NCBI GenBank assembly: GCA_024231215.1 | Contig: JAAEQR010000195.1 | Location: forward strand, 363,724 to 427,723 | Direction of reading: 5' to 3' | Source of the DNA: PVC group bacterium | GTDB taxonomy: Bacteria > Omnitrophota > Gorgyraeia > B26-G9 | Length of the DNA stretch: 64,000 nucleotides | Shown: positions 29,795-38,777 of the stretch, in pieces | How the letters are laid out: each line of letters opens with the position of its first letter | How positions within the stretch are numbered: the first letter of the stretch is position 1 | Made by a program: the position numbers and the translations under genes | The notes under the pieces: model-generated | The model's database searches: none | What the model saw: only the letters and a program-made list of their open reading frames with translations | Told to the model about the DNA's origin: nothing

Positions 29795-30955
29795 ATGGAT
29801 ATAAAGACAGCTGATTCATTAAAAAAACTACCACCGTATCTTTTCGTGGAAATTGACAAAGCAAAAAGAATTGCAAGAAAAGCAGGTAAAGATTTAATAG
29901 ATTTAGGAATAGGGGATCCGGATACTCCGACACCTAAACATATTATAGATGCTTTAAATAAAGCGGTAAAAATCCCGGCAAATCATAAATACGCTATGGA
30001 CGCGGGCATGCCTGTTTTGCGTCAGGAAATTGCCAGATGGTATAAGAACAGGTTTAAAGTATCTTTAAACCCCGATACGGAAATATTACCTGTTTTGGGT
30101 TCTAAAGAAGCGATTGCCCATACCCCATTCGCATTTTTAAATAGAGGCGATGTTACGCTAGTGCCTGATCCGGGTTATCCTCCATATAATAATGCTACAA
30201 TTTTAGCCGGAGGAAAACCATATAAGATGCCTTTATTGGAAGAAAACGCGTTTTTGCCGGATCTTAAAAAAATTCCAGCTTCGATTTTAAAAAAAGCAAA
30301 GCTTATGTTTCTTAATTATCCCAATAATCCTACTGCAGCATTAGCTCCGAAGAGTTTTTTAAAAGATGTAGTAAAATTTGCTAAAAAACATAAAATTATC
30401 ATATGCTTTGATATGGCTTATTCGGAGATGTGTTATGATAATTATCGTTCTCCGGGAATTTTGCAGATAAGCGGAGCTAAAGAAGTAGCGGTTGAATTTC
30501 ATTCTCTTTCTAAGACATTTAATATGACTGGGTGGAGAATTGGCTGGGTTTGCGGGAATAAAGATATTGTAGCTGGAATTGCAAAGATTAAATCTAATAT
30601 GGATTCCGGCATTTTTCAAGCGGTACAGTTGGCTGGAATGGCAGCTTTGAAAAGCAATACTTCTTTTTATAAAAATATGGCTAGGATATACGAAGAACGC
30701 CGCGATATTTTAGTAAGTGGATTAGAAAAGATCGGATTTTCTATAAATAAGCCCAAGGCAACTTTTTATATTTGGACAAAAATCCCAAAAGGGAAAAACT
30801 CTATGAAATTCGCTAATGAATTGATGCAAAAGGCGGATATTGTAGCTACCCCGGGAGTTGGATTTGGTAAGTTTGGGGAAGGGTATATCAGGTTTGCTTT
30901 AACTCAAAATAAAACCAGAATGAAAGAAGCAGTAAAGCGTTTATCTTCTTTATGA
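29795..30955 (+). CDS. dapL: class I aminotransferase, probably LL-diaminopimelate aminotransferase
   Basis: fold-type I aminotransferase with PLP-Lys SLSKTFNMTGWRIGW; sits in dapFAB cluster; no dapD/dapE seen in window. Confidence 0.6.
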   Translation: MDIKTADSLKKLPPYLFVEIDKAKRIARKAGKDLIDLGIGDPDTPTPKHIIDALNKAVKIPANHKYAMDAGMPVLRQEIARWYKNRFKVSLNPDTEILPVLGSKEAIAHTPFAFLNRGDVTLVPDPGYPPYNNATILAGGKPYKMPLLEENAFLPDLKKIPASILKKAKLMFLNYPNNPTAALAPKSFLKDVVKFAKKHKIIICFDMAYSEMCYDNYRSPGILQISGAKEVAVEFHSLSKTFNMTGWRIGWVCGNKDIVAGIAKIKSNMDSGIFQAVQLAGMAALKSNTSFYKNMARIYEERRDILVSGLEKIGFSINKPKATFYIWTKIPKGKNSMKFANELMQKADIVATPGVGFGKFGEGYIRFALTQNKTRMKEAVKRLSSL

Positions 30956-31443
30956 ATCAGAAATGGCGAAAAGTTTATTTAGGTATCGGCTCTAATCTGG
31001 GTAACAGAAAAGACAATATCGAGATTGTACTTTCCTGCCTGTCAGTAAAAAAAGAAATTCGAATTGCTAAAATTTCTCCTTTGTATGAGACCACCCCAGT
31101 TGGTGGTCCACCGCAGGATATGTTCTTAAACGGAGTGCTCTGCATCGAAACTACAGCTGCGCCGTTTAATCTATTGCAGACTTTAAAAGCAATAGAACAG
31201 GATATGGGTCGTAAGCAACAAAAAATCAAATGGAGCCCCCGGATCATTGATCTGGATATCCTTTTTTATGAAGAATTTTTTATAGTGATGGAGGGGTTGG
31301 TTATTCCTCATCCTTTATTGCATAGACGTATGTTTGTTTTACAGCCTTTGGCAGACATTGCGCCTGGGCAGAAACATCCGCTATTTAAAAAAACTGTCCA
31401 AAAACTTTACAATGAGTTAATAGAAAAAAATGAAACTAATTAA
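30952..31443 (+). CDS. folK: 2-amino-4-hydroxy-6-hydroxymethyldihydropteridine pyrophosphokinase
   Basis: VYLGIGSNLG...RIIDLDIL HPPK motifs. Confidence 0.88.
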   Translation: MNQKWRKVYLGIGSNLGNRKDNIEIVLSCLSVKKEIRIAKISPLYETTPVGGPPQDMFLNGVLCIETTAAPFNLLQTLKAIEQDMGRKQQKIKWSPRIIDLDILFYEEFFIVMEGLVIPHPLLHRRMFVLQPLADIAPGQKHPLFKKTVQKLYNELIEKNETN

Positions 31444-32275
31444 AAGTATTACTTCAATGCAGAAAATCAGTAGAATATTAAGGAAAAATAGAAAGACTAT
31501 TGGGTTTGTTCCGACTATGGGTTATTTGCATGAAGGACATCTTTCCTTAGTTAAGCGTGCGGTTCGTGATTGCGATATTACGGTGATGAGTATTTATGTA
31601 AATCCTCTGCAGTTTGGGCCGAGTGAAGATTTCAAGTCCTATCCACGTGATTTAAAAAGAGATATGTCTTTGGCAAAAAGTGCTGGGGCCGATTATATTT
31701 TTTTACCTTCGAATAAACAGATGTATCCATCTCAATGTCTTACAAGTGTTGAAGTTACGGGTATTTCTAGGGTTTTGTGCGGGGTTTCTCGCCCGGGACA
31801 TTTTAAGGGTGTAACTACAGTGGTAGCAAAGCTTTTTAATGTTGTATCACCGGATATGGCGTATTTTGGGCAGAAAGATGCTCAACAATCGATTTTAATC
31901 CAAAAGATGGTTAAGGATCTTAATTTACCTCTTAAAGTAAAGGTGCTTCCTATTATAAGGGAATCTGACGGGTTAGCGATGAGTTCGCGTAATGCATACT
32001 TAACTTCTGCTCAGAGGAAGGTGGCGGTGTTGTTGTATAAATCGCTACAGCAAGCTAAAGCTCAAATTAGTCAGGGAGAGCGAAATCCCCGTAAAATTGT
32101 TCAGAGAATGAAAAGATTGATATCTGAGTCGAAATTTGCTACAATAGACTACATTAATATCGTCGATGCCGACGATCTGTCCGAGAAGAAAAAAATCAAA
32201 GGTAGAGTGTTAATAGCATTAGCGGTTTTTATTGGTAAGGTTAGATTGATCGATAATGTGATCATAAGAGTTTAG
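31430..32275 (+). CDS. panC: pantoate--beta-alanine ligase
   Basis: GFVPTMGYLHEGHLSL HIGH-type motif. Confidence 0.92.
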   Translation: MKLIKSITSMQKISRILRKNRKTIGFVPTMGYLHEGHLSLVKRAVRDCDITVMSIYVNPLQFGPSEDFKSYPRDLKRDMSLAKSAGADYIFLPSNKQMYPSQCLTSVEVTGISRVLCGVSRPGHFKGVTTVVAKLFNVVSPDMAYFGQKDAQQSILIQKMVKDLNLPLKVKVLPIIRESDGLAMSSRNAYLTSAQRKVAVLLYKSLQQAKAQISQGERNPRKIVQRMKRLISESKFATIDYINIVDADDLSEKKKIKGRVLIALAVFIGKVRLIDNVIIRV

Positions 32276-32284
32276 GAGTTATAA

Positions 32285-32650
32285 ATGCTACGTATAATGT
32301 GCAAGTCAAAAATTCATAGAGCAACAGTAACAGATGCTAATTTGCAGTATATGGGAAGCATCACGATTGATAAAGAATTATTAGATGTCGCGGATATTTA
32401 TCCGAACGAGCGGGTGCAAGTTGTAAATCTGAATAATGGGGCACGAGTTGAGACCTATGTCTTTGAAGGAGAACCTGGTTCAGGTGTGATTTGTATGAAT
32501 GGTGCAGCTGCAAGATGGGCAGAGCAGGGAGATAAAGTTATTATAATTGCTTATGGTTTGTTTGATTCTGATGAGGCTAAGAATTGTAGTCCAAAAGTGA
32601 TTTTTGTTGATGATAAAAATAAAGTAACTGATGGCAAGGGAAGAGAATGA
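32285..32650 (+). CDS. panD: aspartate 1-decarboxylase
   Basis: KIHRATVT...YMGSITID self-processing site. Confidence 0.92.
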
Positions 32651-33453
32651 TTAAAGTTGGCATTATTGGTTGTGGAACAATTGGTTCTTATTTGATAAAT
32701 ACAATAATAAAAAAGTATAAAAAGAATGTTTGTGTTGTCGGAGTTTGTGAAATCCAGAAAGAGAAGCTGGATTCGTTAAATCGCTCCCGCAAAGTAAAAA
32801 TTAAAAACTATCCGCTTGATTCTCTAATAAAAAAGTCAGATTTAGTTATTGAAGCTGCTTCTGGGGCAATTGCTGCAAAAGTTGTTGCCCGGGCGGTATT
32901 TTTCGGAAAAGATGTTATGATTATGAGTGTCGGAGGACTTCTGAAGAATCCACAATTATTTAAAAAGGTTAAAAAAAGAAAAATTAAACTTTATATTCCC
33001 AGTGGTGCGATTGCCGGATTAGATGCAGTAAAAGCAGCACGCATGGGAAAGATTAAAAGTGTTACGCTTACGACGAAGAAGCCAATAGCCGGACTTAGGG
33101 GGGCTGAATATCTTCAAAAGAAAAAAATAGACTTAACGAAGATAAAAAAAGAGAGAGTTGTATTTAATGGAACGGCACTTGAAGCTGTTGCAGGGTTCCC
33201 TAAAAACATTAATGTAGCAGCTGTTTTAAGCCTGGCTGGGATTGGAGCCGGAAAAACCCGGGTTTGTATCATTGCATCACGGCTGACAAAAAGAAATTCA
33301 CATACTATTGCAATTGAGGGAGATTTTGGTAAAATAGTATGTTGCACGGAGAATGTGCCGTCAAAGCTAAATCCAAAGACAAGCCAGATGGCAATCTTAT
33401 CAGCTTTGGCGACATTAGACGGAATACTTGATAACGTACGGATTGGTAATTAA
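32647..33453 (+). CDS. NadX-like L-aspartate dehydrogenase family protein
   Basis: N-terminal Rossmann [13 protein letters not shown], about 268 aa, DUF108/NadX-like organisation; assignment by resemblance only. Confidence 0.55.
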
Positions 33454-33652
33454 AGTAATTATGAATTGTAACAATCATGAACGAAATATGCAGGTATGTA
33501 ATTGTAGTTATGAACCTTGTTCACGCAAAGGAAAATGTTGTGAATGCCTTCACTATCATCGTAAGATGAATGAACTTCCTGCGTGTTTTTTTAATAATAA
33601 GGTTGAGAGTACATACGACCGATCGATTCAGCGCTTTATTAAAACACAGTAA
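33428..33652 (+). CDS. small cysteine-rich protein (true start may be ATG 33461)
   Basis: [23 protein letters not shown]...LPACF; nine Cys and two His in about 45 aa. Confidence 0.45.
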
Positions 33653-33693
33653 AACGGTCGTTAAAAATTTAATTTCGGAAGGGAGGTGACAAC

Positions 33694-33927
33694 ATGGCAG
33701 AAAAAGTGACAAAAGCTGGTGTGAAGAGAGAAAAAGGGTATCTCTATTATTTGGACAAACAAGGAGATGTCTCCAGAGCTAAGATGGCAAGAGGCGGTAA
33801 GAAGGGCGGAAAGCCGGAAAAGGTGAATAAAGTAGGTGTAGCCAGAGAAGAAGGCTTTTTGTATTTCATCGATAAGGAAGGTGACGTTTCCAGAGCTAAA
33901 ATGGCAAGACGTAAAAAGAAAAAATAA
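33694..33927 (+). CDS. small basic protein built from two tandem ~36-aa repeats
   Basis: GVKREKGYLYYLDKQGDVSRAKMAR / GVAREEGFLYFIDKEGDVSRAKMAR; RBS GGGAGG before ATG. Confidence 0.6.
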   Translation: MAEKVTKAGVKREKGYLYYLDKQGDVSRAKMARGGKKGGKPEKVNKVGVAREEGFLYFIDKEGDVSRAKMARRKKKK

Positions 33928-33991
33928 AATATAGATATTAGATAAACGAGGGGTCGGGATATTTCTCCGAGCCTTCAGAGAAATAATATTG

Positions 33992-34019
33992 GCCCCTGTG
34001 AAGATATCTTCGCGGGGGC
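33992..34019 (+). terminator. GC-stem hairpin GCCCC-(TGTGAAGATATCTTCGC)-GGGGC
   Basis: stem plus internal 12-bp palindrome GAAGATATCTTC, followed by AT-rich tract. Confidence 0.4.
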
Positions 34020-34037
34020 TCAATAGTCATTATAAAT

Positions 34038-34090
34038 AAATTTTAAAGAAGGCTGTAGGGGCGAACCCCCGCCATGGCGGGACAGGCTTG
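34038..34090. repeat. GC-rich palindromic intergenic element (GGCTGTAGGGGC + CCCGCCATGGCGGG + GGCGGGACA-N6-TGTCCGCCC)
   Basis: read from sequence; related copies at 22232 and 50281. Confidence 0.55.
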
Positions 34091-34136
34091 TGTCCGCCCG
34101 TGACAAAAAAACGTAAAGTGAAAGGAGCAGATTCAT

Positions 34137-34625
34137 ATGTCAGATGAAGTAAAAAAAGAGGAATCGCAAGAGGGAAAACAGGAACAACCGGTCGAAGCAC
34201 AACCTGAGGAAAAGCAGCCGGAACAAGCAGAAGCTAAGGCAGAAGAGACTCCGGAAGCAAAGCCAGAAGTTGCTGCAGTAGAAGAAAAAGTAGAAGCTAA
34301 AGCGGAAGAGGCTCCAGAAGCAAAGCCGGAAGAAGTTGCTGTTGTAGAGGAAAAAGTAGAAGCTAAGGTAGAAGAGACTCCAGGAGCAAAGCCGGAAGTT
34401 GCTGTTGTAGAGGAAAAAGCAGAAGAGGAAAAGAAGGATAAAACTCCTTCTAAAGTAGAAATTCCGAAGAATTGTGGATCCTGTAAGAAGCCCGTAGAAA
34501 AGATTCGTTACTATCGGAACATGCAGTTTTTCTGTAATACCAAATGCTGGAAAAATTTCAAGAAGAAACAAGCGGAAGATAAAAAGAAAGCAGAAGAAGA
34601 AAAGCAGCAGAAAGAAGCTGCATAG
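34137..34625 (+). CDS. acidic E/K/P/A-repeat protein with C-terminal Cx2Cx16Cx3C (YHS/TRASH-like) zinc ribbon
   Basis: three tandem ~63-66-bp DNA repeats (34239-34430) encoding AEE(T/A)PEAKPEV..EEKVEAK; C-terminal CGSCKKPVEKIRYYRNMQFFCNTKCW. Confidence 0.6.
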   Translation: MSDEVKKEESQEGKQEQPVEAQPEEKQPEQAEAKAEETPEAKPEVAAVEEKVEAKAEEAPEAKPEEVAVVEEKVEAKVEETPGAKPEVAVVEEKAEEEKKDKTPSKVEIPKNCGSCKKPVEKIRYYRNMQFFCNTKCWKNFKKKQAEDKKKAEEEKQQKEAA

Positions 34626-34635
34626 AATTAACTTT

Positions 34636-35700
34636 ATGGAAAGTATTCTTATTGTTTTGCTATTTATTGTAATTGTAGCTGTGGTGCTTTTGTATTTAAA
34701 GCTTCAGCAGAAGCGTACAAAAGGCGACGCATTAGGTCTTATGCAGCAACAGATGGATAGTATGCGTCAGCAGGTAAATCAGCAATTAGGTGATCTTAAT
34801 AACAGTATAAATCAGAATTTGCAGGCAGTAACTAAGCAGATGCTTTCTTCTCAGCAGACAGTTGGAGACAGGCTTGATAGCGCGACCCGAGTGGTTGGGC
34901 AGGTGCAGAAAGATCTAGTATCTTTGTCCGAAGCAACACAACGCGTTTTTGAAGTAGGAAAAGATATCTCGGGATTGCAGGATATTTTGAAAGCACCTAA
35001 ACTGCGTGGTGGGTTAGGAGAGTTGTTTCTGGAAGATATCTTGCGGCAGATTTTGCCGACGGCCAACTTTGACTTACAGTATAAGTTTAAGAACGGTGAT
35101 ACGGTAGATGCAATTATTCGTTTGGGGCAGGGGCTTGTTAGTGTAGATTCAAAGTTTCCTTTAGAAAATTTTTGCCGGATTATGAGTGGAACAAGCGAAG
35201 AAGAAAAGCAAAAAGCTCGCAGGACTTTTAAAAGCGACGTTAAGAAACATATAGATAGTATTGCCGAAAAATATATTGTTCCGGATGAGGGAACGTTTGA
35301 TTTTGCGCTGATGTATATTATGGCGGAAAATGTATATTATGAGATGATTATAAAAGAAGATTCCGATAGTGAACGCAGTCTTAGCGCTTATGCTTTGACA
35401 AAAAAAGTTATTCCCGTTAGCCCGAATTCTTTTTATGCGTATTTACAGGCGATTGTCTTAGGTCTAAAAGGATTAAGAGTCGAGAAGAATGTGGAAGAAA
35501 TCATTCGCTATTTATCGCGGTTGAGTTCTGATATGCAGCATTTCCGAAAAGATTTTGACGTAATTGGCCGGCACATTGTTAATATTAAGAACAAATATGA
35601 TGAAGCAGACAAAAAGATTGTTAACTTTGAAGAAAAACTTTTAACTGTTTGCAGTGTGGATAAGCAAGATAACCTTTTAGGTGATAATGATGAAAAATAA
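34636..35700 (+). CDS. rmuC: DNA recombination protein RmuC
   Basis: N-terminal TM, long coiled coil, RmuC-family C-terminal region. Confidence 0.75.
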   Translation: MESILIVLLFIVIVAVVLLYLKLQQKRTKGDALGLMQQQMDSMRQQVNQQLGDLNNSINQNLQAVTKQMLSSQQTVGDRLDSATRVVGQVQKDLVSLSEATQRVFEVGKDISGLQDILKAPKLRGGLGELFLEDILRQILPTANFDLQYKFKNGDTVDAIIRLGQGLVSVDSKFPLENFCRIMSGTSEEEKQKARRTFKSDVKKHIDSIAEKYIVPDEGTFDFALMYIMAENVYYEMIIKEDSDSERSLSAYALTKKVIPVSPNSFYAYLQAIVLGLKGLRVEKNVEEIIRYLSRLSSDMQHFRKDFDVIGRHIVNIKNKYDEADKKIVNFEEKLLTVCSVDKQDNLLGDNDEK

Positions 35701-36238
35701 CCATGAAGAAAGAAGAAGCCATCCTCGTTTTATTTCTACTTTGCCGTTAGAAATCAGCACCCCTGATTTTAATTTTCAGACGAGGACTACGAATCTGAGT
35801 TGTTCTGGAATTCTCTGCGAAATAGATCGGTTTATTCCGGTGCAGACTAAGTTAAATGTGACGATGCGTCTTTCATTAGTTGTTGATGATCATAAGATAA
35901 AAAAATCAGTAAGTTGTCCGGCTATAGTAAGCCGGATAGATCCTGCTGAGCAAAAAGATATTGGAAATTATAATGTTGGCATTGTTTTTTTGCATATTGA
36001 GGGAAAAGACAAGGAGTTTATTTTACAGTTTATTCGTCAGAAGAATTTAAAAGAAGCGAAAGAGTTGAAACGTTTGTATTTGCAATTAAAAGAAATGGCT
36101 GGACGCTTAGTGGAATTAGAAGAATGTCATCCTACTGCAGAACATTTTCGCAAGGTTATTAGCGGTGCAATTATGGAACTTGATGCAGCGGCACATATTC
36201 TGGATTATGAAATAAACGAATTAAAAAATTTGGAGTAA
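35681..36238 (+). CDS. PilZ-domain protein
   Basis: RRSHPRF (RxxxR) and NLSCSGI (D/NxSxxG) c-di-GMP-binding motifs. Confidence 0.7.
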   Translation: MIMMKNNHEERRSHPRFISTLPLEISTPDFNFQTRTTNLSCSGILCEIDRFIPVQTKLNVTMRLSLVVDDHKIKKSVSCPAIVSRIDPAEQKDIGNYNVGIVFLHIEGKDKEFILQFIRQKNLKEAKELKRLYLQLKEMAGRLVELEECHPTAEHFRKVISGAIMELDAAAHILDYEINELKNLE

Positions 36239-36245
36239 TTTGAGT

Positions 36246-36629
36246 ATGGAAAACAATAATAATAGGTTAGAAAGAAGAGCTTATGAACGATTTGATGTTG
36301 GTCTTGAGTTCAAACTTAAGGGTATTGATTTTCATCTGACTGCGGAAACAAAGAATTTAAGCGGTTCCGGGCTTTATTGCCAGGTGGATCGATTTATTCC
36401 GATGATGACCAAGTTGGCCTTAACAATGTTTGTTCCGGGAATTAATAATGGAGAAAAAGCAGAAAAAGAGATCAACTGTGTAGCTGTAGTAATTAGAATT
36501 ATGCCGGAAACAGAACAAGAGTCTTTAGATCGTTATAATATAGGTCTTTTTTTTATAGAAATTGCAGATAAAGATAGGGATTGGCTATTGACCTATATGC
36601 GTCAGGCTTTTTGTGCGGGAAATAATTGA
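36246..36629 (+). CDS. PilZ-domain protein (paralog)
   Basis: RRAYERF and NLSGSGL motifs; start at ATG 36246. Confidence 0.7.
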   Translation: MENNNNRLERRAYERFDVGLEFKLKGIDFHLTAETKNLSGSGLYCQVDRFIPMMTKLALTMFVPGINNGEKAEKEINCVAVVIRIMPETEQESLDRYNIGLFFIEIADKDRDWLLTYMRQAFCAGNN

Positions 36630-36767: not shown

Positions 36768-36844
36768 GCGCCTGTAGCTCAATTGGATAGAGCACTAGTC
36801 TTCGGAACTAGGGGTTGGGGGTTCGAGTCTTCCCGGGCGCGCCA
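36768..36844 (+). tRNA. tRNA-Arg (anticodon UCG)
   Basis: manual cloverleaf fold: acceptor GCGCCTG, T-arm GGTTCGAGTC, anticodon loop CTTCGGA, encoded CCA. Confidence 0.85.
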
Positions 36845-36861
36845 ATCGAAGGGCAGATAAA

Positions 36862-36890
36862 TTGACTTTAAGTTTATTTTTTGTTATAAT
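36862..36890 (+). promoter_or_regulatory. sigma70-like promoter ahead of tRNA-Lys
   Basis: TTGACT (36862-36867), 17-nt spacer, TATAAT (36885-36890). Confidence 0.55.
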
Positions 36891-36923
36891 TTAGACTTCT
36901 AAAGTTAGAACATCAGGAGTAAT

Positions 36924-36999
36924 GGGCCGTTAGCTCAATCGGCAGAGCATCTGACTCTTAATCAGGGGGTTGAAGGTTCGATTCCTTCACGGCCCACCA
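36924..36999 (+). tRNA. tRNA-Lys (anticodon CUU)
   Basis: manual fold: acceptor GGGCCGT, anticodon loop CTCTTAA, T-arm GGTTCGATTCC, encoded CCA. Confidence 0.85.
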
Positions 37000-37078
37000 T
37001 TCGACTCGACGCTAAAGCGTCTCGCTCATGGTAAACCAGAGAGAGTGGCGAAGAGTGATAGAAAGACTGTATTGACGG

Positions 37079-37163
37079 GCGGACGTGGCGGAATTGGCAT
37101 ACGCGTGCGGCTTAGGACCGTATCCCTCACGGGATGAGAGTTCGACTCTCTCCGTCCGCACCA
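37079..37163 (+). tRNA. tRNA-Leu (anticodon UAG), long variable arm
   Basis: 85 nt, acceptor GCGGACG/CGTCCGC, anticodon loop CTTAGGA, encoded CCA. Confidence 0.8.
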
Positions 37164-37215
37164 TTCGACTCGAATGCAAAGTCGATAAATATTTATATAG
37201 AATTTTAGCAAATAT

Positions 37216-37290
37216 GCGGCGGTAATTCAGTGGTAGAATGTCTGCTTGCCAAGCAGAATGTCGTGGGTTCGACCCCCATCCGCCGCTCCA
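37216..37290 (+). tRNA. tRNA-Gly (anticodon GCC)
   Basis: acceptor GCGGCGG/CCGCCGC, anticodon loop TTGCCAA, T-arm GGGTTCGACCCCC, encoded CCA. Confidence 0.85.
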
Positions 37291-37493: not shown

Positions 37494-38777
37494 GTGAAAG
37501 TTAAAGTCAAAAATGCAGAAAAATGTCAGAAAGTTTTAGAAATTGAAGTTCCAAAAGAAACAGTGCAGGCTGAATTCGACACTTATTATAACGAAGTACG
37601 CAAAACAGCCCAAGTTCCCGGATTTAGAAAAGGGAAAGCACCACGTAAAATCCTGGAAGAATATTATGCTGGGAAAGCTTATGAACAAGTGTTGTCTGAT
37701 CTTGTGAATAATCATTATCGAAAAGCCATAGAAAAAGAAAATATTGATACCGTAAGTATGCCGGAAGTTTCTGATGTAGATTTGAATAAAGACGGAAATC
37801 TTACGTTTAAGAGTAAGGTTAATATCCGCCCGCAGTTTAGTTTAAAAGGATATAAGGGGCTAAAGATTAAAAAAGACTCGGTGGAGGTCACTGAAGAGGA
37901 AGTTACTAAGGTTCTTAGCTATTTGCAAGATCGTTATGCGCAGTTTTTACCGATAGAAGGCAGGGCTACGAAGCAGGACGATTATATTATCTGTGACTAT
38001 AGTTATGAAGTAGAAGGAAAGACTATAGAAAAAAAAGATAAAGCATGGTTCTGGTTAGATAAAGAGATGTTTATCCCGGGGCTTTCGAAAGAACTTCAGG
38101 GAGTAAATGCCGGTGATACAAAAGAGTTTGAACTTACTTTGCCGGAAAATTTTCGTCCAGAAGAAGTTGCTAAGAAAAAGGCTAAATTTAAAGTTGTTGT
38201 TAACGAAATAAAAGAAAAAAAACAACCGGAATTAAATGATGAATTTGCTAAAACAGCTGGAAAAAAATCTGTTGATGAGTTGAAACAGCATATAAAAGAT
38301 GATTTAGTCAGAGAAAAAGAAGCACAAGCAAAGCAGACTTTAAAGGCGCAGATAGTAGATGAATTGATAAAAGCAATGCCGATCGATGTGCCTCAGGAAT
38401 TGGTGGACAAAAGAGATAAATTATTGAGAGATACAGCTAGCCAGAAATTAAAACAACAGGGATTGGATGTTCAGCAAATTGAGCAAGAAGAAAAGAAGCT
38501 GGGGGATTATTTTCCTCAGGAAGCTTTGAAACAGATCAGAATATTTTTCATTCTTGAAGAAATAGCTGCGAAAGAAAAAATTACTGTTACCGAAAAAGAG
38601 ATGGAAGAAAGAATCGAGACTATTGCAAAGTCTTACGGACATACCAAAGAAGAAGTTTTGAAGTATTTTTCTGAGAAAAATATGTTGGAAAGTATACATT
38701 GGGAAATATGGGAAGAGAAAGTGATTTCTTTTCTTGTCGATAATGCTAATGTTCAGGGAGTTACTGCGAAATCTTAA
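37494..38777 (+). CDS. tig: trigger factor
   Basis: GTG start; conserved [11 protein letters not shown] ribosome-binding motif; about 427 aa. Confidence 0.92.

Follow-up and report, generated by a model that had tools for sequence, protein, structure and literature searches.

Nucleoid-associated proteins are, to our knowledge, known for only a handful of folds, and nearly all that is known of them stems from cultured organisms. In Crenarchaeota, Sso7d/Sul7d and Cren7 are strongly basic, monomer-sized, all-beta proteins of 7–9 kDa with three-stranded sheets, each encoded by a stand-alone gene. Tailed nucleoid proteins include mycobacterial HupB and chlamydial Hc1, and histone H1 and tailed HU proteins bear tails of the Lys/Ala/Pro type. 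Here we analysed a stretch of 64,000 nucleotides (nt) of contig JAAEQR010000195.1 from a PVC group bacterium (the whole stretch is referred to as the window), in which three small genes, called g1, g2 and g3, lie on the + strand between an L-aspartate dehydrogenase-like gene and rmuC. We read this block as a lineage-specific juxtaposition of three functionally independent genes, the second of which, g2, would encode a nucleoid-associated DNA binder, and we give this overall reading a probability of roughly 55%.

An earlier note on this DNA had described g2 as a basic protein of 77 amino acids (aa) composed of two tandem repeats of about 36 aa, and this description is accurate. The two protein repeats share 25 of 36 residues, and the underlying DNA repeat (33700-33803 vs. 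33817-33920) is 71% identical at a spacing of 117 nt. Lys and Arg together account for 24 of the 77 residues, and cysteines are absent. The gene and its ribosome-binding site are positioned as follows.

33694..33927, + strand: g2, 77 aa, isoelectric point (pI) 10.2, with tandem units of ~36 aa at 33700-33807 and 33817-33924
33681..33689, + strand: extended Shine-Dalgarno sequence, GGGAGGTGA, read from the sequence and ending 4 nt before the g2 ATG

A Shine-Dalgarno match of at least 5 nt also precedes the g2 homologues in 64 of the 80 g2 loci (L001-L080) that were used for all neighbourhood counts. The 77-aa form has neither a signal peptide nor a transmembrane segment, and the core family is uniformly basic.

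The g2 family is very large and strongly conserved, and neither a name, a family model nor a structure was found for it. A word-indexed search (clusters at the 90% identity level, E ≤ 0.01) returned 4,614 clusters of homologues, all named "hypothetical"; of those listed (120), none carried a precomputed Pfam domain. An exhaustive HMMER scan returned 943 clusters at the 50% identity level. In species-representative genomes (one per species), at least 564 matches were confirmed among the first 600 pattern matches. Among the matches listed, identity to the window protein is 65–89% across bacterial phyla and DPANN archaea; the bacterial carriers are labelled Omnitrophota, Elusimicrobiota/Endomicrobia, Marinimicrobia/Fidelibacterota, Myxococcota, Nitrospirae, Auribacterota and Babeliaceae, and about a dozen titles name the archaeal Woesearchaeota or Nanoarchaeota. 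An identical protein is present in a metagenome-assembled genome of a PVC group bacterium, and the nearest relatives belong to Candidatus Omnitrophota. Over the first repeat in 89 loci the mean amino-acid identity is 0.77 and third-codon identity at conserved residues is 0.43; the latter value is near saturation and therefore speaks for strong purifying selection rather than for recent transfer alone.

An origin of g2 from a phage or another mobile element was considered and rejected, because cultured phage and plasmid collections held no match and matches in IMG/VR were few: 7 of 2.9 million contigs (L084-L090) encode g2 relatives, at 43–62% identity. These contigs suggest occasional carriage by viruses, or else misclassified cellular sequence.

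The AlphaFold model of g2, built on an alignment of 65 sequences, has a mean predicted local distance difference test score (pLDDT) of 91 and a predicted template modelling score of 0.74. It is all-beta and consists of two three-stranded units (strands 3-6, 16-20 and 26-30, then 42-45, 55-59 and 65-69). Each repeat would thus be laid out as a first strand, a G-x-K-R-E-x-G loop, a second strand (YLYY), a D-K-x-G-D turn and a third strand followed by the invariant M-A-R, with the strands antiparallel. The earlier note recognised no family for g2, and our searches bear this out: neither g2 nor 65 relatives had a significant match in Pfam, NCBIfam, PHROG or PADLOC, sequence and profile searches against Protein Data Bank sequences gave no significant match, and structure comparison of the AlphaFold model found no fold neighbour. 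Models of known nucleoid-associated proteins in Pfam and NCBIfam (HU/IHF, Alba, histone fold) likewise matched neither g2 nor the 65 relatives. Judged from the predicted structure, the fold may be new.

The resemblance of g2 to Sso7d/Sul7d and Cren7 lies in its size, strong basicity, three-stranded all-beta architecture and stand-alone gene. It differs from them in the tandem duplication of a ~36-aa unit and in its occurrence in bacteria and DPANN archaea rather than Crenarchaeota. A common origin was rejected, as hhalign gave a probability below 1% against both (with manually entered comparison sequences).

The second resemblance to known chromatin proteins concerns the tails. Many g2 relatives extend the two-repeat core by tails rich in Lys, Arg, Ala, Pro and Thr (e.g., AKKAPAKKAAKK..., ARRKTARRKP...), whereas the tail of the window protein is a short RRKKKK only. 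As in histone H1-like and HU proteins, repeats of the AKKP, KKAA or ARRKT kind are thereby placed on a small core predicted to bind DNA. The g2 core itself is unlike the HU/IHF fold, and Pfam Bac_DNA_binding does not match it. Fusions point in a similar direction: in P0255 the g2 domain takes the C-terminal place in a protein with ParB_N and HTH_ParB domains, and in P0258 it is joined to an HNH nuclease. P0269 has a Cys-rich N-terminal region that resembles that of P0255, as judged by eye. Extra domains are few and heterogeneous in a Pfam scan of 32 long g2 relatives. As a separate observation, P0249, P0250 and P0256 form a subfamily with a conserved C-terminal extension of ~95 aa (KP.VKY(L/F)VYESK ... 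NLR(L/M)VN..PKKY) that has no Pfam match.

We propose g2 as a non-specific DNA-binding nucleoid protein because of its pI of 10.2, the H1-like tails of its relatives, the ParB and HNH fusions, the stand-alone context of its gene and the strong Shine-Dalgarno sequence. Its many Lys and Arg residues and an exposed aromatic/Met surface would let the protein bind double-stranded DNA irrespective of sequence. It would be an abundant nucleoid-associated protein, comparable in its action to Sso7d and Cren7 while being unrelated to both. Other members of the family would add histone-H1-like tails or serve as a DNA-anchoring module in ParB-like and HNH proteins. The indicators for high abundance and non-specific binding in the cell are indirect ones, namely the same charge, tails, fusions and ribosome-binding site. 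For the specific claim that g2 is a DNA-binding nucleoid protein we consider the chances even. A farther-reaching version, in which g2 is a chromatin protein of a previously undescribed kind, has a new beta fold of two units, spread by horizontal transfer among lineages labelled Omnitrophota, Elusimicrobiota/Endomicrobia, Marinimicrobia, Myxococcota, Babeliaceae and DPANN archaea, is a major DNA compactor in them, and has g3 as a possible chaperone or antagonist in the present clade, is tentative and on balance doubtful.

If g2 is a chromatin protein, it would represent a new architectural DNA-binding fold, and the 77-aa, Cys-free window protein, which should be easy to produce, would offer a concrete and easily tested candidate for DNA packaging in several uncultured lineages. 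The family has thousands of members, at 65–89% identity across phyla and DPANN archaea (again among the matches listed), for which no Pfam model, solved relative or fold neighbour was found. No description of the g2 family was found in the literature on nucleoid proteins of Omnitrophota, Elusimicrobiota and DPANN archaea, of which our coverage is incomplete, so that a prior description may exist. Unconventional bacterial histones have been reported in some of the phyla that carry g2 (PMC11390915).

The surroundings of g2 bear on whether the three genes belong together. The other genes of the block and its neighbours are the following.

32647..33453, + strand: L-aspartate dehydrogenase-like gene, upstream neighbour, from the list of open reading frames (ORFs); Pfam NAD_binding_3 and Asp_DH_C on the orthologues in L081-L083
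33461..33652, + strand: g1, 63 aa, Cys-rich, ATG start, DUF6485 (Pfam PF20095)
34137..34625, + strand: g3, 162 aa, with an acidic N-terminus (predicted to be disordered), a zinc finger modelled as a treble clef, and a long charged helix
34636..35700, + strand: rmuC, DNA recombination protein gene, downstream neighbour; Pfam RmuC on the orthologues in L081 and L082

All three small ORFs that the earlier note listed are present on the + strand and are conserved in relatives, and homologues of g1 and g3 keep every Cys of the respective pattern. Neither of the two outcomes that the note would have taken as refutation, ORFs without any conservation or a Cys pattern that varies among homologues, was observed. 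Their association is narrow: among the 80 g2 loci, a DUF6485 gene adjoins g2 upstream in 5 and g3 lies downstream in 3. Aspartate dehydrogenase stands directly upstream of g2 in 23/80 loci, and uvrA is present in 20/80, in 17 of these just downstream of g2, so that the order in the wider Omnitrophota is aspartate dehydrogenase-g2-uvrA. The full order aspartate dehydrogenase-DUF6485-g2-g3-(rmuC)-PilZ is found only in the closest Omnitrophota (L004, L043, L029, L081, L082, L083), where the neighbourhood is collinear. In this clade uvrA is replaced by g3-rmuC, and a DNA-repair or recombination gene therefore comes after g2 in both arrangements. No neighbour of g2 is conserved across phyla in the 80 loci; the lack of a cross-phylum operon partner, together with the strong Shine-Dalgarno sequence in most loci, fits a stand-alone, well-translated housekeeping gene. 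We regard it as highly probable that the three genes are mutually independent and are identified as described here.

Two further observations concern the surroundings of g2 in other loci. The order panC-panD-(nadA)-aspartate dehydrogenase-g2-uvrA is kept across diverse Omnitrophota (window 30952-33453; L001-L080), although nothing evident connects g2 with the biosynthesis of pantothenate or nicotinamide adenine dinucleotide (NAD). In Elusimicrobia-type loci (e.g., L075 3250-3525), an ORF of ~90 aa that looks like an excisionase/MerR-type helix-turn-helix protein, judged by its sequence, precedes g2 by ~110 nt in the same orientation in 11/80 loci.

Several observations weigh against three independent genes with a DNA-binding g2. 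The case for DNA binding is one of composition and fusions, and the conserved aromatics on a beta strand would equally suit a single-stranded nucleic acid. Some relatives have settings of another kind: P0135 is a membrane-anchored protein of 886 aa with at least six g2-like units, P0175 fuses a g2-like unit to OmpA, and in P0164 (468 aa) g2-like units alternate with zinc ribbons beside GAF and prokaryotic RING domains. The weak sequence echoes of g2, insignificant as they are, are confined to YWTD/DUF5050 propeller blades and DotY. Taxon labels of the carriers come from metagenome-assembled genomes and may be partly wrong. Finally, the g2 ATG lies just 41 nt past the end of g1, which makes independent transcription of g2 less secure, and g3 was never seen away from g2, which lends slight weight to a functional link between the two. 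Binding of RNA or single-stranded DNA is a serious rival. In its RNA form, g2 would be a lineage-variable ribosomal accessory protein or an RNA chaperone and not a DNA binder; a small, very basic, extremely conserved protein with a strong Shine-Dalgarno sequence is typical of ribosomal proteins too, and the conserved aromatics of the central strand resemble ribonucleoprotein-type stacking surfaces. Yet g2 lies outside ribosomal-protein operons in all 80 loci, its patchy occurrence in both domains of life at ~70% identity is hard to square with co-evolution with ribosomal RNA, those fusion partners that are informative (ParB and HNH) are DNA proteins, and H1-like tails are a chromatin hallmark, so that we consider an RNA or ribosome binder rather unlikely. 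We judge it less likely still that the repeat is a general beta-hairpin unit for binding proteins or ligands, as in a propeller blade or a cell-wall-binding repeat, with its charge being incidental. Multi-unit membrane or secreted proteins and the OmpA fusion do exist, and faint similarities were seen to the YWTD blades of LRP2 (E 0.045, no single stretch significant), to DUF5050 (11.3 bits, below the cut-off of 27) and to an endolysin in PHROG. None of these similarities is significant, however, CW_binding_1 matched neither g2 nor its relatives, and the core family is cytoplasmic, uniformly basic and gains tails and fusions of the DNA type.

The remaining alternatives tie g2 to its neighbours. 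According to the earlier note, the block could form a module for metal handling or nucleic-acid binding, e.g., with Cys-rich g1 and zinc-finger g3 serving g2. Such a module would account for the order aspartate dehydrogenase-DUF6485-g2-g3-rmuC that is kept in seven related genomes, for the constant company of g3 and g2, and for the conserved Cys clusters in two of the three proteins. In those genomes, however, the entire neighbourhood of 8 kb is syntenic, and adjacency there is for this reason little informative. Family sizes are far apart (4,614 clusters for g2, 721 for g1 and 14 for g3) and taxonomic ranges differ; g2 occurs without g1 and g3 in at least 75/80 loci, and DUF6485 loci of four other phyla are without g2. 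With g1 and g3 so seldom beside g2, and no metal-transport or metal-chaperone domain detected in Pfam and NCBIfam scans of the block, the metal-handling proposal is not sustained, and a nucleic-acid-binding role is plausible for g2 but not for the block as a module; a module of either kind appears very improbable. A narrower alternative, by analogy with histone chaperones, would make g3 the dedicated acidic partner of g2, a chaperone or antagonist whose disordered arm shields the basic protein. It is suggested by the invariable position of g3 directly downstream of g2 and by the contrast in charge, as the N-terminal 100 residues of g3 have a pI of 4.3 and are predicted to be disordered, vs. 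a pI of 10.2 for g2. Against it, g3 is limited to a tiny clade, outside of which g2 nearly always does without it, the acidic arm differs in length between members (it is nearly gone in P0125, P0131 and P0134), and a conserved hairpin parts g2 from g3, which itself abuts rmuC with a gap of 10 nt. We consider this partnership improbable.

The first gene, g1, is an ordinary member of an already known family and of minor interest beside g2. Its longest ORF starts at a TTG at 33428 and yields 74 aa. The ATG at 33461 is the likely start, as homologues are 63–70 aa long and have their first conserved Cys 2–6 residues after the start. The protein matches the domain of unknown function DUF6485 (PF20095) at 30.1 bits, above the gathering cut-off of 24, over profile positions 2-63 of 70. 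Its homologues number 721, with PF20095 on all 120 listed, and named carriers of the domain are Omnitrophota, Spirochaetota, Aminicenantes, Actinobacteria, Firmicutes and Verrucomicrobiota. A TYDRS motif and the residues C3, C13, C15, C20, C26, C27, C29, C42 and H33 do not vary across 18 sequences from several phyla. All of these Cys and His residues of the family are present in g1, and nothing sets it apart. The Cys motif quoted in the earlier note is correct, although its count of nine Cys and two His is not, since the protein has 8 Cys and 3 His.

The match to PF20095 and the invariant Cys and His residues uphold the view of g1 as a Cys-rich and probably metal-binding protein; judged from its sequence, zinc (two sites) or an iron-sulfur cluster is probably bound by this small domain of eight Cys and one His. 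The g1 gene is tucked at the end of a pantothenate/NAD biosynthetic run. That run, of the order folK-panC-panD-..., is closed by the aspartate dehydrogenase-like gene, 7 nt ahead of g1. Sequence and profile searches of g1 against solved structures gave no significant match, and DUF6485 was absent from the literature searched, of which coverage is incomplete. DUF6485 loci in Spirochaetota, Aminicenantes, Hakubella and Verrucomicrobiota have mutually unrelated neighbours, which include neither g2 nor g3, and no consistent neighbour was found at the loci in these four other phyla, be it NAD or iron-sulfur genes. Independently of this, a DUF6485 ORF at L082 3337-3522 is uncalled in the source annotation; tblastn with g1 recovers it at 62% identity.

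The third gene agrees with its earlier description as a 162-aa protein with three tandem DNA repeats and a Cx2Cx16Cx3C pattern (C113-x2-C116-x16-C133-x3-C137). Two features lie within it.

34220..34425, + strand: tandem repeats of g3, 3 x 63-66 nt, 84% matches, units K(A/V)EE(T/A)P(E/G)AKPE..VEEK
34452..34577, + strand: zinc-finger core of g3, residues 106-147, ligands C113, C116, C133 and C137

Searches with the C-terminal domain found 14 homologues of 81–106 aa, and every one with a named source is from Omnitrophota. This family keeps the four Cys and the motif RYYRNMxFFCN..CW without exception. The 3x21-aa repeat is specific to the present genome; homologues are without the expansion and have acidic N-termini of differing length. 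AlphaFold models residues 1-105 with low confidence (pLDDT <50 over most of them), and residues ~110-160 reach about 90 or more. In the modelled domain a zinc knuckle is followed by a beta-hairpin (strands 125-127 and 130-132) and by a helix that begins at residue 135; this corresponds to a treble-clef topology.

The earlier note had likened this ribbon to the YHS/TRASH metal-binding pattern. As a description of the pattern the label is fair: the Cx2C, the beta-hairpin and the (F)Cx3C at the start of a helix are shared with TRASH, MYM(FCS), L24e and VATC fingers, as is the treble-clef topology predicted by the model. As a statement of membership it is not supported for YHS (PF04945), which matched neither g3 at E ≤ 1 nor any of the 15 family members at E ≤ 0.1, and it is doubtful for TRASH, given a spacer of 16 residues and other matches that are sub-threshold only. 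The corresponding Cys spacer of TRASH domains is 19–22 residues. The g3 protein scores 19.5 bits against VATC (PF18716; cut-off 26.6), with sub-threshold matches in 14 of 15 members; ribosomal L24e is matched weakly by 2/15 members, and the g3 profile matches the MYM finger of ZMYM5 (2DAS) at E 0.006. In contrast to all of these fingers, for which every match stays below curated thresholds, the combination of an acidic arm and a long charged helix is specific to this small Omnitrophota family. We regard g3 as a young, clade-restricted gene; its family is small and new, falls into a known fold class and is of minor interest beside g2. The protein would combine a disordered acidic arm with a structural zinc treble clef. 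It probably heads an rmuC-PilZ transcription unit and is co-transcribed with rmuC, from which it is separated by 10 nt here and by 23 nt in L081 and L082.

The earlier note further placed GC-rich palindromes on both flanks of the block. Both of them in fact sit inside the 209-nt spacer between g2 and g3, whose folding as a whole gives z = -4.5.

33992..34019, + strand: GC-rich stem-loop of 13 bp (palindrome I1), present in the minimum-free-energy fold and conserved in L081 and L082
34052..34105, + strand: GC-rich sequence in which two short hairpins are possible, genome-specific and missing from the aligned spacers of L081, L082 and L083

Changes in the 33992-34019 stem in L081 and L082 keep the pairing, and the element looks like a terminator or a 3'-stabilising hairpin, without a U-tract directly after it. 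Rfam has no match in 33400-34700. A dispersed repeat resembling repetitive extragenic palindromes was rejected as an explanation, because the GC-rich elements occur only once in the window. A second hairpin-forming insertion in the spacer, at 33948-33985, is likewise unique in the window and missing from the spacers of L081 and L082.

Genes for PilZ-domain proteins come after rmuC, as judged from Pfam PilZ on the orthologues in L081 and L082. Two adjoining PilZ-like ORFs (185 and 129 aa) are found 3' of rmuC in the window, at 35681-36629, and L081 and L082 have three PilZ genes there. Farther downstream, four tRNA genes (Arg-TCG, Lys-CTT, Leu-TAG and Gly-GCC) are clustered at 36768-37290, upstream of the trigger factor gene (37494-38777); these tRNAs (n = 4) are the only Rfam matches in the whole window.

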